This document shows, piece after piece, positions 37,020-49,553 of a stretch of 64,000 nucleotides of DNA. The notes beneath the pieces were generated by a model. The model was given only the letters and a program-made list of their open reading frames with translations. It was not told where the DNA came from and did not search any database. The stretch's first letter is position 1. Every line of letters starts with the position of its first letter. The DNA comes from Escherichia phage WPEC2. The translations under genes were made by a program, and so were the position numbers. The stretch lies in the sequence record PV691511.1. One strand, given 5' to 3'.

Positions 37020-40000
37020 ATATTTTTAGATAATTTTTAGCTGTATGATCCGCAAGATTTTAACTGGTTCTTACAAGAAGGTCTTGACTTAAGTCGCATC
37101 TCTCCTTTCTACGATGCTGATGAGTCTTATTCATCTGTTGTTGCAGCAAATACGCTCATTTCAGGCTTCTTCGGACCACCAGTAGCTGCTTTTAAAAATG
37201 GACTTGTCGTTGGATAGTTGGCAATCCATGCTTTATAGAAGCGAAGCAATGTTGCACTGCTCAACGGAATATTATTTGTCATTTTTGTTTCCTTCATAAT
37301 CCTGAATTCTATCTAGCACCCATTGTATACGATGTTTGTTTTTATGGCAAATATGTTTTTTATGCCCTCTCCTCTCTTGGGGCTTTGCCCCTCCTCCTTG
37401 TTATTTTTAACACCCCTCTCCGAAAGGTTAGGGGCTTTTTTCTTTTTGGATAGTTGGCAATCCATGCTTTATAGAAGCGAAGCAATGTTGCACTGCTCAA
37501 CGGAATATTATTTGTCATTTTTGTCTCCTTCATAATCCTGAATTCTATCTAGCACCCATTGTATACGATGTTTGTTTTTATGGCAAATATGTTTTTTATG
37601 TCTCCTCTTCATATGTTGGTAGTGCATGGTATGCGATCACAGGTGCCAAGTCAAAATAAAAATGACCATTGATAACAGCGCAATAAGACTCATCAGCATC
37701 GTAGAAAGGAGAGATGCGACTTAAGTCAAGACCTTCTTGTAAGAACCAGTTAAAATTTAATAAGACTCATCAGCATCGTAGAAAGGAGAGATGCGACTTA
37801 AGTCAAGACCTTCTTGTAAGAACCAGTTAAAATTTTCAGGATAGTTGGCAATCCATGCTTTATAGAAGCGAAGCAATGTTGCACTGCTCAACGGAATATT
37901 ATTTGTCATTTTTCTGTCAGCTTGTTAATCATTGGTGATAAATAGCGTTTACCAACGTAAAACAGCACGCCAACTGATGCAACGGCGGCGATTTCATGTA
38001 AGGAGGAAGGTCGCGCGGTGTCATAGTAGGTACCTATAATAGCAATAGCGGCAACGGCGGCAATATGCTTGACGGATGATTCCATCCTTTAAGGATTTTA
38101 CCGCCATTGTGCAACCGTCGCCAAATGCTTCATTTTTATGGTCTATCACTTCATAAGCGCCCAGTTTGCTGCTGTTAGGCACCATTAACGCGAATACATC
38201 ACCAACAACCAGGTTTTCCTGTTGTTGCAGCAAATACGCTCATTTCAGGCTTCTTCGGACCACCAGTAGCTGCTTTTAAAAATGGACTTGTTATTCTTCA
38301 TTCTCCTCTTCTGCATTTCTTATATATGGTGAAACACCGTACTCTTTAGCTACTTTAACCCAATCGTCCGGATAGTTGGCAATCCATGCTTTATAGAAGC
38401 GAAGCAATGTTGCACTGCTCAACGGAATATTATTTGTCATTTTTCTTTCCTTCATAATCCTGAATTCTATCTAGCACCCATTGTATACGATGTTTGTTTT
38501 TATGGCAAATATGTTTTTTATGTGTTACAGGGTGCACCTTTTAATAAATGGGAAGAGGCTGTAGGAGAAGACCCTAGAATTGAAGAAGAATTTGACAAAG
38601 ATTTTAACTGGTTCTTACAAGAAGGTCTTGACTTAAGTCGCATCTCTCCTTTCTACGATGCTGATGAGTCTTATTGTTATCAATGGTCATTTTTATTTTG
38701 ACTTGGCACCTGTGATCGCATACCATGCACTACCAACATATGAAGAGGAGACTAACAATGGCTAACAAAGAACCACACGTATATACTGCACTGGTAAAGC
38801 ACTTGAACAAAGAACGTAACAGGATCACTGTTGTTGCAGCAAATACGCTCATTTCAGGCTTCTTCGGACCACCAGTAGCTGCTTTTAAAAATGGACTTGT
38901 CGTTCTTCATTCTCCTCTTCTGCATTTCTTATATATGGTGAAACACCGTACTCTTTAGCTACTTTAACCCAATCGTCCCCTACAAAATTGCGCATATTTT
39001 ATCCTCCTCATATCTGATCTTATCACAAAATGATATACAATTGCAAGCATTAAAAAGAAAAAAGCCCCTAACCTTTCGGAGAGGGGTGTTAAAAATAACA
39101 AGGAGGAGGGGCAAAGCCCCAAGAGAGGCCCTCTCCTCTCTTGGGGCTTTGCCCCTCCTCCTTGTTATTTTTAACACCCCTCTCCGAAAGGTTAGGGGCT
39201 TTTTTATTTTTCTGTTGTTGCAGCAAATACGCTCATTTCAGGCTTCTTCGGACCACCAGTAGCTGCTTTTAAAAATGGATTTGTCATTTTTCATTCTCCT
39301 CTTCTGCATTTCTTATATATGGTGAAACACCGTACTCTTTAGCTACTTTAACCCAATATCACCGCCGTTGCATCAGTTGGCGTGCTGTTTTACGTTGGTA
39401 AACGCTATTTATCACCAATGATTAACAAGCTGACACCGATCGCCGCCGTTGCATCAGTTGGCGTGCTGTTTTACGTTGGTAAACGCTATTTATCACCAAT
39501 GATTAACAAGCTGACACCGACAGATATTGCCGCCGTTGCCGCTATTGCTATTATAGGTACCTACTATGACACCGCGCGACCTTCCTCCTTACATGAAATC
39601 TGTTACAGGGTGCACCTTTTAATAAATGGGAAGAGGCTGTAGGAGAAGACCCTAGAATTGAAGAAGAATTTGACAGAGATTTTAACTGGTTCTTACAAGA
39701 AGGTCTTGACTTAAGTCGCATCTCTCCTTTCTACGATGCTGATGAGTCTTATCCTCTCTTGGGGCTTTGCCCCTCCTCCTTGTTATTTTTAACACCCCTC
39801 TCCGAAAGGTTAGGGGCTTTTTTATTTTTCATGCTTGCAATTGTATATCATTTTGTGATAAGATCAGATATGAGGAGGATAAAATATGCGCAATTTTGTA
39901 GGGATAGTTGGCAATCCATGCTTTATAGAAGCGAAGCAATGTTGCACTGCTCAACGGAATATTATTTGTCATTTTTCTCTCCTTCATAATCCTGAATTCT

Positions 40001-41280
40001 ATCTAGCACCCATTGTATACGATGTTTGTTTTTATGGCAAATATGTTTTTTATGTGATCCTGTTACGTTCTTTGTTCAAGTGCTTTACCAGTGCAGTATA
40101 TACGTGTGGTTCTTTGTTAGCCATTGTTAATTTCCTCTTCATATGTTGGTAGTGCATGGTATGCGATCACAGGTGCCAAGTCAAAATAAAAATGACCATT
40201 GATAACAGTCAGCTTGTTAATCATTGGTGATAAATAGCGTTTACCAACGTAAAACAGCACGCCAACTGATGCAACGGCGGTGATTTCATGTAAGGAGGAA
40301 GGTCGCGCGGTGTCATAGTAGGTACCTATAATAGCAATAGCGGCAACGGCGGCAATATGCTTGACGGATGATTCCATCCTTTAAGGATTTTACCGCCATT
40401 GTGCAACCGTCGCCAAATGCTTCATTTTTATGGTCCATCACTTCATAAGCGCCCAGTTTGCTGCTGTTAGGCACCATTAACGCGAATACATCACCAACAA
40501 CCAGGTTTTCTGTTACAGGGTGCACCTTTTAATAAATGGGAAGAGGCTGTAGGAGAAGACCCTAGAATTGAAGAAGAATTTGACGAAGATTTTAACTGGT
40601 TCTTACAAGAAGGTCTTGACTTAAGTCGCATCTCTCCTTTCTACGATGCTGATGAGTCTTATTGTTACAGGGTGCACCTTTTAATAAATGGGAAGAGGCT
40701 GTAGGAGAAGACCCTAGAATTGAAGAAGAATTTGACAGAAATTTTAACTGGTTCTTACAAGAAGGTCTTGACTTAAGTCGCATCTCTCCTTTCTACGATG
40801 CTGATGAGTCTTATCAGGATAGTTGGCAATCCATGCTTTATAGAAGCGAAGCAATGTTGCACTGCTCAACGGAATATTATTTGTCATTTTTTTGGATAGT
40901 TGGCAATCCATGCTTTATAGAAGCGAAGCAATGTTGCACTGCTCAACGGAATATTATTTGTCATTTTTTTTTCCTTCATAATCCTGAATTCTATCTAGCA
41001 CCCATTGTATACGATGTTTGTTTTTATGGCAAATATGTTTTTTATGAATGATCCTGTTACGTTCTTTGTTCAAGTGCTTTACCAGTGCAGTATATACGTG
41101 TGGTTCTTTGTTAGCCATTGTTAATTGATCCTGTTACGTTCTTTGTTCAAGTGCTTTACCAGTGCAGTATATACGTGTGGTTCTTTGTTAGCCATTGTTA
41201 ATCTCCTCTTCATATGTTGGTAGTGCATGGTATGCGATCACAGGTGCCAAGTCAAAATAAAAATGACCATTGATAACATA
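37020..41280. repeat. hyper-mosaic array of ~75-nt gene-fragment modules, both orientations
   Basis: At least 15 recurring module types, each an in-frame fragment of a gene elsewhere in the window, concatenated with 1-4 nt variable junctions; track ORFs here are chimeric module strings. Confidence 0.8.
39055..39208. repeat. perfect long inverted repeat (two copies of one module head to head)
   Basis: Arms ~74 nt (39055-39128 and 39135-39208) around a 6-nt centre; each arm contains hairpin GGGGCTTTGCCCC and a terminator-like CCCCTCTCCGAAAGGTTAGGGG plus T-run. Confidence 0.8.
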
Positions 41281-48236: not shown

Positions 48237-49003
48237 GGGTTAAAGTAGCTAAAGAGTACGGTGTTTCACCATATATAAGAAATGCAGAAGAGGAGAATGA
48301 AGAAGGGACGATTGGGTTAAAGTAGCTAAAGAGTACGGTGTTTCACCATATATAAGAAATGCAGAAGAGGAGAATGAAGAATGGACGATTGGGTTAAAGT
48401 AGCTAAAGAGTACGGTGTTTCACCATATATAAGAAATGCAGAAGAGGAGAATGAAGAATGACAATTAGCTTGACGGATGATTCCATCCTTTAAGGATTTT
48501 ACCGCCATTGTGCAACCGTCGCCAAATGCTTCATTTTTATGGTCATTGGGTTAAAGTAGCTAAAGAGTACGGTGTTTCACCATATATAAGAAATGCAGAA
48601 GAGGAGAATGAAGAATGACAAGTCCATTTTTAAAAGCAGCTACTGGTGGTCCGAAGAAGCCTGAAATGAGCGTATTTGCTGCAACAACAGAATGGGACGA
48701 TTGGGTTAAAGTAGCTAAAGAGTACGGTGTTTCACCATATATAAGAAATGCAGAAGAGGAGAATGAAAAAGGGACGATTGGGTTAAAGTAGCTAAAGAGT
48801 ACGGTGTTTCACCATATATAAGAAATGCAGAAGAGGAGAATGAAAAATGGACGATTGGGTTAAAGTAGCTAAAGAGTACGGTGTTTCACCATATATAAGA
48901 AATGCAGAAGAGGAGAATGAAAAATGACAAATTGGGTTAAAGTAGCTAAAGAGTACGGTGTTTCACCATATATAAGAAATGCAGAAGAGGAGAATGAAAA
49001 ATG
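48237..49003 (+). repeat. tandem array of one module (about 8 copies) interspersed with others
   Basis: Repeated GGACGATTGGGTTAAAGTAGC...GAGAATGAA(G/A)AA units with junction series GGG, TGG, TGA. Confidence 0.8.
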
Positions 49004-49553
49004 ACAAGTCCATTTTTAAAAGCAGCTACTGGTGGTCCGAAGAAGCCTGAAATGAGCGTATTTGCTGCAACAACAGGCTTGACGGATGATTCCATCCTTT
49101 AAGGATTTTACCGCCATTGTGCAACCGTCGCCAAATGCTTCATTTTTATGATCCATCACTTCATAAGCGCCCAGTTTGCTGCTGTTAGGCACCATTAACG
49201 CGAATACATCACCAACAACCAGGTTTTCTTAGCTTGACGGATGATTCCATCCTTTAAGGATTTTACCGCCATTGTGCAACCGTCGCCAAATGCTTCATTT
49301 TTATGATCTCCATCACTTCATAAGCGCCCAGTTTGCTGCTGTTAGGCACCATTAACGCGAATACATCACCAACAACCAGGTTTTCTACGCGGCACCATTG
49401 CCGCCCTACGTGGTAAATATTATGCCGCCACCTGGCGAACGTCAACCACTTTTTAATCTTTTTATTTTTCTTTTTGCTTGCTATATATAAAGGAAAGGGC
49501 TATTATCTTTCTACCGCGCCAACCAGGGCGCACAACAAAGAAAGGGCGACACC

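Follow-up and report, generated by a model that had tools for sequence, protein, structure and literature searches.

The stretch of DNA analyzed here (the window) comprises 64,000 nt of Escherichia phage WPEC2 (PV691511.1), a Phapecoctavirus (phAPEC8-like). Its large blocks were mapped on the Phapecoctavirus genome OR062524 and were scattered over positions and orientations of the normal genome. Between them lie runs of short tiles, many of which belong to families that share a small variable core; the site of such a family is called a microsite and is named by its position in OR062524. In the following list the tiles are called edges, in keeping with our reading of them as edges of an assembly graph.

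1-6118: long block with glycosyltransferase and endolysin genes; maps to OR062524 104551-110669
6119-31946: long block; maps to OR062524 25782-940 (reverse)
31947-33698: block; maps to OR062524 146202-144452 (reverse), not adjacent to the preceding block in the normal genome
33699-34406: nine short edges of ~77-83 nt, from microsites 129789, 942, 34508 and 25783
34407-34739 and 34740-37053: two blocks of the early-gene region; map to OR062524 139013-138699 and 143906-140364
37054-41278: main run of edges of 78-83 and 146-154 nt, read as concatenated graph edges
Starts 37212, 37448, 38370, 39902 and 40894 in the main run, and 47606 in the second run: 153-nt edges of site 942, six in all
Starts 38523, 39601, 40511 and 40663: 152-nt edges of site 34508 in the main run, four out of a total of eight
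41279-44496: block with vWA-TerF-like and TelA-like genes; maps to OR062524 110593-113615
44497-45010: short edge run, including a 152-nt edge (44577-44728) and a 150-nt edge (44861-45010)
45011-45632: block; maps to OR062524 144423-143831; exact 77-nt overlap with block 34740-37053
45633-49389: second main edge run, from microsites 34508, 57760, 25783, 113621, 942 and 147361 and early-region intergenic sequence
49390-58833: long block with genes for NADAR, a CapR-domain protein, an AAA ATPase and others; maps to OR062524 138719-129792 (reverse)
58834-59593: short edge run, from microsites 25783, 147361 and 144450
59594-61120, 61121-61679, 61680-62944, 62945-63060 and 63061-64000: five blocks from scattered early-region positions

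The tiles numbered 91, amounted to ~10 kb and were ~99% identical to other loci of the window on both strands; they occupied 33.7-34.4, 37.05-41.28, 44.5-45.0, 45.6-49.4 and 58.8-59.6 kb. Self-BLAST of the window placed the repeats where an earlier note on this DNA had put them. Repeat coverage was 100% in 37.0-41.0 and 46.0-49.0 kb, smaller repeat blocks were found at 33.5-34.5, 44.5-45.0, 45.5-46.0, 58.5-59.6 and ~62.9-63.1 kb, and no repeats appeared in 1-31.5 kb except at a single spot near 6.1 kb. The 996 self-matches had a median identity of 99.3% and comprised 636 direct and 360 inverted pairs. While the 64-kb window contained 569 exact repeats of at least 30 nt, a normal relative of 150 kb contained just three, of 30, 35 and 37 nt. 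The repeat density of the window is far above chance.

The "multicopy family" genes and intergenic units of the earlier note do exist. Natural short repeats of 35-48 nt were also observed at 34699-34739, 49389-49426 and 62981-63021, and natural repeat units lie close to a few of the block ends of the early-gene region. The tiles are derived from gene ends, start codons and ribosome-binding sites, and chimeric ORFs result.

We then analyzed the lengths of the repeats. Nearly all of the 569 maximal exact repeats were 68-80 nt long, with a mode at 77 (123 cases); only 2 exceeded 83 nt, and the fall-off beyond 77 proceeded at the rate expected from chance extension. Repeated 77-mers were confined to discrete positions spaced ~77 or ~152 nt apart. 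The segment lengths had their mode at 78 nt, i.e., k + 1 for k = 77 (18 segments at 78, 14 at 79, 9 at 80 and 5 at 81 nt); since the segmentation imposed a minimum of 78 nt, the lack of shorter tiles is partly built in, but the mode at 78 and the edges checked by hand are not. Hand checking of three 79-nt edges showed that each consists of the shared 77-mer plus 2 nt.

The longer tiles followed the same number. Tile families of 146-154 nt were found at eight microsites, and at seven of these the span common to the family members equaled 2 x 77 + 1 - d, where d is the span of the small variable core. The observed spans were 153, 154, 152, 149, 146, 153, 152 and 152 nt, and those predicted were 153, 154, 152, 149, 146, 153, 151 and 152 nt, the seventh-listed microsite being 1 nt over the prediction. 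The flanks of the cores were symmetric, at 77 - d. This is the arrangement of parallel edges in a graph bubble, where the start of an edge is k nt away from its last variable base and its end is k nt away from the first. Tile borders were set only by their 77-nt distance from the variable cores and shared no border motif.

These results corrected three points of the earlier description. In place of modules of about 72-78 nt, the basic unit is 77 nt, and the tiles fall into two size classes of 78-83 and 146-154 nt. The supposed joints of 1-4 variable nucleotides turned out to be polymorphic cores in the middle of the 146-154-nt tiles, whose sequence runs through the core collinearly with that of normal phage genomes. 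The statement that modules usually stay in frame is weak, as tile length was divisible by 3 in only 38 of the 91 tiles; the impression arose because the common lengths of 78, 81, 150 and 153 nt are multiples of 3.

The eight microsites lie at OR062524 positions 942, 25783-4, 34508, 57760, 113621, 129789, 144450 and 147361, and all of them are in low-complexity purine- or T-rich sequence. Four are within ribosome-binding sites or start codons. The cores are at most 10 nt long, and the tiles of one microsite differ at the core only. At seven microsites each core haplotype occurred exactly once, with both strands counted; at the eighth, four haplotypes were present, all different. Several of the sets were combinatorially complete: 8 of 8 (three A/G sites), 6 of 6, 4 of 4 and 4 of 4. 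Read on the coding strand, the derived alleles were G->A and T->C for genes of either genome strand, and one microsite had A->C within a T-run. Wild-type haplotypes persisted at every microsite. At several microsites, the variable G ends an ATG or GAG trinucleotide.

When segments were joined by exact 77-nt overlaps, they formed a graph, and wherever its links were followed, the normal gene order was restored. The 77 nt at 6042-6118 are identical to those at 41279-41355, which joins two blocks adjacent in normal genomes; block 41279-44496 is thus the one that truly continues block 1-6118. Its end lies a few nucleotides before the TelA start codon. Because that codon sits in a microsite beyond the block end, the ORF at 43392-44591 has a chimeric 5' end. 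Likewise, block 63061-64000 (OR062524 948-1) is the true neighbor of the 31946 end of block 6119-31946, via the edges of site 942. The walk across this site leads from 6119-31946 through three edges of 79 nt, six edges of 153 nt and two edges of 79 nt to 63061-64000; it was done manually by 77-mers, as the borders of the automatic segmentation were 1-2 nt off at a few tiles. Physically adjacent segments were also graph neighbors in 17 of 102 cases, a sign that their order is not wholly random.

The long blocks of the window were 89-99% identical to phAPEC8, tuntematon, vB_EcoM_3A1_SA_NWU and iGC_PHA_EC001, and the tile at 47995-48146 was identical to iGC_PHA_EC001 over all 152 nt. Unlike the window, normal Phapecoctavirus genomes (148-152 kb) are mutually collinear and contain each tile source once. 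The 152-nt unit was single-copy in 106 of 109 related genomes and had 16-19 matches in each of WPEC1, WPEC4 and WPEC6 (PV659873, PV682947 and PV763039). A long block of the window recurs in these three records at 100% identity: 6119-14000 matches all three, and 15229-31946 matches WPEC1, while the matches of all other phages begin at 6119. After the gene at 31574-31942, however, the three records continue differently from the window. Their block and tile order differs from record to record and from the window, and none of the three matches the window's mosaic. In WPEC1, for which 1-98 kb was covered, the repeat-length peak at 77 nt was the same as in the window and 63 of the 91 tiles were present verbatim, but 40-mers taken from the window were found in WPEC1 for 80 of 91 tile centers versus only 17 of 97 junction-spanning positions. 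A literature search found no paper on the WPEC phages or their assembly.

We conclude, with a probability of about 95%, that the hyper-mosaic is no real feature but a chimeric assembly made of concatenated edges of a k = 77 de Bruijn graph. A de Bruijn-graph assembler with a final k of 77 would have been run on short reads from a phAPEC8-like phage. In the read set, ~10 point sites would have carried several alleles within at most 10 nt. At each site the graph would fork and rejoin, giving fork edges of k + 1 to k + 6 nt and parallel bubble edges of 2k + 1 - d nt, and the bubbles would have been left uncollapsed. Long and short edges would then have been written serially, in any order or orientation and with no Ns, as a single "genome." The window has the properties of unresolved bubbles and short edges of a SPAdes-type assembly at k = 77, namely, repeats capped at k, minimal edges of k + 1, bubbles of 2k + 1 - d, each edge present once, k-nt overlaps between neighbors and fragmentation at recurrent variants. 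Such edges usually remain separate small contigs that are discarded, whereas in the window they are concatenated with long contigs without Ns. Their inclusion in one "complete genome" produces the apparent 10-kb mosaic and the scrambled gene order.

Of this account, the geometry set by k = 77, the connections of the graph, the scrambling of the blocks and the lack of such repeats in normal relatives are shown by the data, while we infer the identity of the assembler, the way in which the pieces were concatenated and the reason for the read heterogeneity. The value 77 is the SPAdes default largest k for reads of ~150 nt, and read heterogeneity usually stems from minor variants or recurrent errors at very deep coverage. 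De Bruijn assemblers given very high coverage are described as producing false branches and fragmented assemblies (PMC5923482). Full combinatorial allele sets such as those found here need very deep coverage or real variation. Three other accounts were considered and discarded. Untrimmed overlaps of consecutive edges, giving tandem 77-nt duplications, do not fit, as only 24 repeated 77-mers were exactly 77 nt apart. Neither do contigs sorted by length, as length does not change monotonically along the blocks and tiles. Over-correction of reads toward paralogous sites was also rejected: for the five microsites used in this analysis, no 27-mer within 5 substitutions was found elsewhere in the 100 kb of reference searched.

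The earlier note offered a chimeric assembly as an explanation of the array beside programmed cassette shuffling and promiscuous template switching. Chimeric assembly is the only one of the three supported by the evidence, which comprises the 77-dependent geometry, the single occurrence of variants, the 77-nt overlap graph, the different order of the same tiles in an independently deposited sister record and the lack of a reverse transcriptase, recombinase or transposase nearby; the claim that ordinary processes cannot make such an array is therefore unsupported. A phage-encoded system for cassette shuffling, diversification or template switching, which would copy and join gene fragments of ~75 nt, is extremely improbable. 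Although the origin of the tiles in gene ends, start codons and ribosome-binding sites, their two orientations, the chimeric ORFs and the recurrence of tile sequences in the deposited WPEC1 record could be taken for its products, no enzyme would impose a tile length that follows the core span as 2 x 77 + 1 - d, and every variant occurs once. WPEC1 retains the tile content but only the 17 of 97 junctions, and neither the single-copy state of the unit in 106 of 109 genomes nor a normal relative without repeats above 37 nt fits such a system. Neither 10 flanking ORFs nor the annotated genes of relatives included a reverse transcriptase, recombinase or transposase. The window shares short modules, local variation and both orientations with diversity-generating retroelements, shufflons and CRISPR arrays. 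However, it lacks the reverse transcriptase, template/variable repeat pair and adenine-specific changes of diversity-generating retroelements; it lacks the constant unit of CRISPR arrays, since the tiles abut and copy phage loci in both orientations; and it lacks the recombinase and conserved crossover sites at the borders that mark shufflons or invertible cassettes. Natural promoter/terminator repeats of Phapecoctavirus intergenic regions also differ, as 106 genomes have just one copy of the tile unit and the normal relative has only the three repeats of at least 30 nt.

The remaining alternatives accept the artefact and concern the origin of the branches. That true genomic repeats of at least 77 nt (paralogous gene ends or promoter-terminator units) caused the branching is very unlikely. 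The multicopy genes and intergenic units, the natural 35-48-nt repeats and the few early-region block ends near them speak for it, but the longest exact repeat in the normal relative is 37 nt, on which ground this cause was rejected; moreover, tiles at a microsite differ at the core only, and each of the eight main microsites is a unique locus, as a search of 100 kb of reference gave no second 27-mer at 5 or fewer substitutions. It is somewhat more plausible, but still unlikely, that the branches reflect genuine high-frequency variants of the phage stock at ~10 hypermutable or selected microsites, for example, by loss of a start codon or Shine-Dalgarno sequence or by escape from host defence such as CRISPR PAM/seed escape. 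The window and WPEC1 are variable at the same microsites, their haplotype sets differing in part, the derived G->A and T->C changes follow the coding strand independently of the genome strand, half of the microsites are in ribosome-binding sites or start codons, and at several microsites a variable G is last in ATG or GAG, trinucleotides that resemble type I-E PAMs. On the other hand, wild-type haplotypes remain at all sites, the full sets (8/8, 6/6 and 4/4) resemble independent per-base events and not selected lineages, one site has A->C in a T-run, and systematic errors are expected in the low-complexity sequence in which all sites lie. Type I-E escape was rejected, as seven candidate 32-nt protospacers had zero spacer matches in 5,426 complete E. 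coli genomes and wild-type haplotypes persist. A related proposal, which we consider doubtful and less probable than stock variants in general, is that ~10 hypervariable microsites in the phage stock lie behind the bubbles, through localized hypermutation or through selection against expression of certain early genes on the host E. coli EC3.18. With regard to this proposal, half of the sites seen are in Shine-Dalgarno sequences or start codons, including that of the TelA-like gene, and the coding-strand G->A and T->C changes at 7 of 8 sites would have arisen independently at 2-4 neighboring bases and become frequent enough to assemble.

The window contains no cassette-shuffling system, and its mosaic has no biological weight. 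The importance of the chimeric assembly lies in the data quality of public records. Signs of the same trouble are seen in no fewer than three public "complete genome" records of the WPEC series (155-161 kb, 351-381 features), in which gene order is scrambled and a unit found only once in other genomes has several copies; WPEC1, which was closely examined, has the 77-nt repeat peak and many ORFs of 90-150 nt annotated as genes. Comparative genomics, taxonomy, gene-family counts and scans for novel repeats can all be led astray by the affected records. The signature is simple and general, with repeats capped at k, spans of 2k + 1 - d and each variant present once, and could be used to flag such records automatically.

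Self-BLAST of the window yielded 996 non-trivial matches, which bore out the earlier note's observation of a dense repeat array. Repeat coverage was 100% at 37.0-41.0 and 46.0-49.0 kb, with smaller blocks at 33.5-34.5, 44.5-45.0, 45.5-46.0, 58.5-59.6 and ~62.9-63.1 kb, and there were essentially no repeats in the first 31.5 kb (1-31.5 kb). The matches (median identity 99.3%; 636 direct and 360 inverted) had quantised lengths, with 499 at 70-79 nt, 151 at 80-89 nt and 124 at 150-159 nt, with minor clusters around 232 and 308 nt.

We then analyzed exact repeats. Nearly all of the 569 maximal exact repeats of at least 30 nt were 68-80 nt long, and the mode was 77 nt (123/569), followed by 53 at 78, 9 at 79 and 6 at 80 nt; the drop beyond 77 nt is what chance extension would give, and just 2 of the 569 exceeded 83 nt. 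Repeated 77-mers recurred only at discrete spacings of ~77 or ~152 nt. Natural repeats have no such hard length ceiling, while contigs of a de Bruijn graph with a k-mer size (k) of 77 do, because anything longer collapses into one edge. When the window was cut into pieces bounded by repeated 77-mers, with a 78-nt minimum imposed, 103 segments were obtained; the commonest length was 78 nt, or k+1 (18 segments, with 14 at 79, 9 at 80 and 5 at 81 nt), and about 30 of the 103 were 146-158 nt. In the 150 kb of OR062524 (vB_EcoM_3A1_SA_NWU), a normal Phapecoctavirus used as the control, only three exact repeats of at least 30 nt were found (30, 35 and 37 nt).

The window also carries genuine intergenic repeats of 35-48 nt (e.g. 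...ACCACGTAGGGCGGCAATGGTGCCGC...) at 34699-34739, 49389-49426, 62981-63021, 61606-61650 and 62897-62941, which occur in normal relatives as well (OR062524 ~140210 and ~147205). Probably early promoters or stem-loops, these units lack the length needed to break a k=77 graph.

The non-repetitive parts matched phAPEC8-like E. coli myoviruses of the genus Phapecoctavirus, whose genomes are usually 148-152 kb. Window 6119-14000 was 100% identical to Escherichia phages WPEC1, WPEC4 and WPEC6 from Thai hospital wastewater (GenBank records of 161,280, 155,794 and 155,327 bp) and its identity to ordinary Phapecoctavirus members was 99.4-99.7%; for all phages listed, the match started at position 6119. 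The long non-repeated pieces (blocks) were placed on OR062524 as follows.

Order of the long blocks of the window on OR062524
1-6118: 104.5-110.7 kb
6119-31946: 25.8-0.9 kb, reversed
31947-33698: 146.2-144.5 kb
34740-37053: 143.9-140.4 kb
41279-44496: 110.6-113.6 kb
49390-58833: 138.7-129.8 kb
63061-64000: 0.9-0 kb
Artificial junctions: 6118/6119, 31946/31947, 41278/41279, 44496/44497, 49389/49390

Since blocks that adjoin in the window lie far apart in the normal genome, the whole window, mosaic included, is a scrambled concatenation. Window 22355-22692, 27766-28219, 30138-30695, 42820-43019, 56556-57074 and 60852-61485 had no match in OR062524; this probably reflects ordinary replacement of small genes, as is typical of mosaic phages.

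The variable "joints" described between modules proved to be polymorphic cores inside longer repeated pieces (tiles of 78-83 or 146-154 nt): pairs of ~150-nt matches differ only centrally, at positions 69-84. The eight copies of a 152-nt tile (starts 38523, 39601, 40511, 40663, 44577, 45633, 46497 and 47995) differ solely at positions 75, 76 and 78, where all 2^3 A/G combinations are present. The entire tile is collinear with normal phages (47995-48146 equals iGC_PHA_EC001 over all 152 nt), and the unit occurs as one copy in 106 other genomes versus 16-19 matching places in WPEC1, WPEC4 and WPEC6. For k=77, parallel edges should start 77 nt ahead of the last variable base and end 77 nt past the first, giving a length of 2x77+1-d for a core spanning d+1 bases. 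The observed span, taken as the stretch common to all family members, was compared at eight microsites.

Observed and predicted tile spans by OR062524 site
942: 153 nt, predicted 153
25784: 154 nt, predicted 154
34508: 152 nt, predicted 152
57760: 149 nt, predicted 149
113621: 146 nt, predicted 146
129789: 153 nt, predicted 153
144450: 152 nt, predicted 151
147361: 152 nt, predicted 152

The flanks around the cores are symmetric, each core haplotype occurs once in the window, and haplotype sets are complete at several sites (8/8, 6/6, 4/4 and 4/4). When mapped, all short tiles fall on a handful of point sites, whose individual footprints of 157-167 nt equal twice k plus the core.

The pieces are also linked as graph edges. 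Three 79-nt tiles (37837-37915, 40815-40893 and, in reverse, 34171-34249) start with the 77 nt that end block 6119-31946, and each carries a different one of three alleles. From each of them the graph continues into two 153-nt tiles; the resulting six lead to two further 79-nt tiles, 33857-33935 and 47759-47837, and block 63061-64000 starts with the final 77 nt of these. The two blocks so linked are adjacent in the normal genome. Likewise, 6042-6118 is identical to 41279-41355 and joins two blocks neighbouring in OR062524. Only 17 of 102 pairs of physically neighbouring segments are also graph neighbours.

WPEC1 1-98 kb showed the 77-nt peak too. In this stretch of WPEC1, 63 of 91 short tiles were found verbatim and 80 of 91 tile centres, while only 17 of 97 junction-spanning 40-mers were present, indicating that tile content is reproducible and adjacency arbitrary. 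The 100% match between WPEC1 and the window ends at 31946; past that block, the annotated gene orders of WPEC1, WPEC4 and WPEC6 differ from the window and from one another. These records (PV659873, PV682947 and PV763039) were deposited as "complete genomes" of 155-161 kb, versus 148-152 kb for the genus, and their gene orders are scrambled and mutually different. In WPEC1, the tail sheath gene adjoins a DNA helicase gene, and additional tRNA-Gln copies and dozens of 90-150-nt CDS are annotated.

The graph branches at just ~8-10 sites, each with 2-4 variable bases within at most 10 nt, often in full combinatorial sets. Examples inside tiles are window 38597-38600, 46178-46179, 38445-38447 and 48614-48623; the OR062524 equivalents of the microsites are 942, 25783-4, 34508, 57760, 113621, 129789, 144450 and 147361. 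At seven of the eight, the derived alleles show coding-strand G->A and T->C changes, plus one G->C, regardless of the strand of the gene; the eighth has two A->C positions within a T-run. Of the eight microsites, four fall in ribosome-binding sites (Shine-Dalgarno) or start codons. WPEC1 varies at the identical sites with partly different haplotype sets, which makes the variation systematic. At very deep coverage, recurrent errors can assemble into false branches (PMC5923482). The alleles seen here may be either errors or genuine minor variants. Over-correction toward paralogous sites and CRISPR escape were tested as causes of the branching and were unsupported.

The earlier note had also considered programmed cassette shuffling and template switching, with modules usually staying in frame. 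The frame claim is weak: tile lengths are divisible by 3 in 38 of 91 cases, and the impression arises because 3 happens to divide 78, 81, 150 and 153. A Pfam scan of ten ORFs flanking the mosaic identified TelA, vWA-TerF-like, NADAR, CapR and AAA domains, and no reverse transcriptase, recombinase or transposase was found in these ORFs or in the annotations of relatives. A CRISPR array was ruled out, as the tiles have no constant repeat between them. The following genes were noted.

43392-44591, minus strand: TelA-like ORF (Pfam TelA, E=4e-33), 399 aa as called, starting at a GTG within the run of tiles
41238-44591: Ter-like cluster, vWA-TerF-like and TelA, with a TerC-annotated membrane protein close by in relatives
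50623-53173: protein with a NADAR domain; protein of 486 aa carrying five CapR-homology repeats, called "endonuclease" in the annotations of relatives

The first ~30 codons of the TelA-like ORF are chimeric, because the block ends at 44496, just before the true start codon, itself part of a microsite; the TelA gene of the normal relative is 1,113 nt (~370 aa).

The biological interpretations of the mosaic are therefore rejected, and the third option of the earlier note, a chimeric assembly, is correct on the basis of the 77-nt ceiling, the 2x77+1-d spans, the graph links and the scrambled order. Rather than a real feature of this genome, the mosaic region is a string of concatenated k=77 de Bruijn graph edges.
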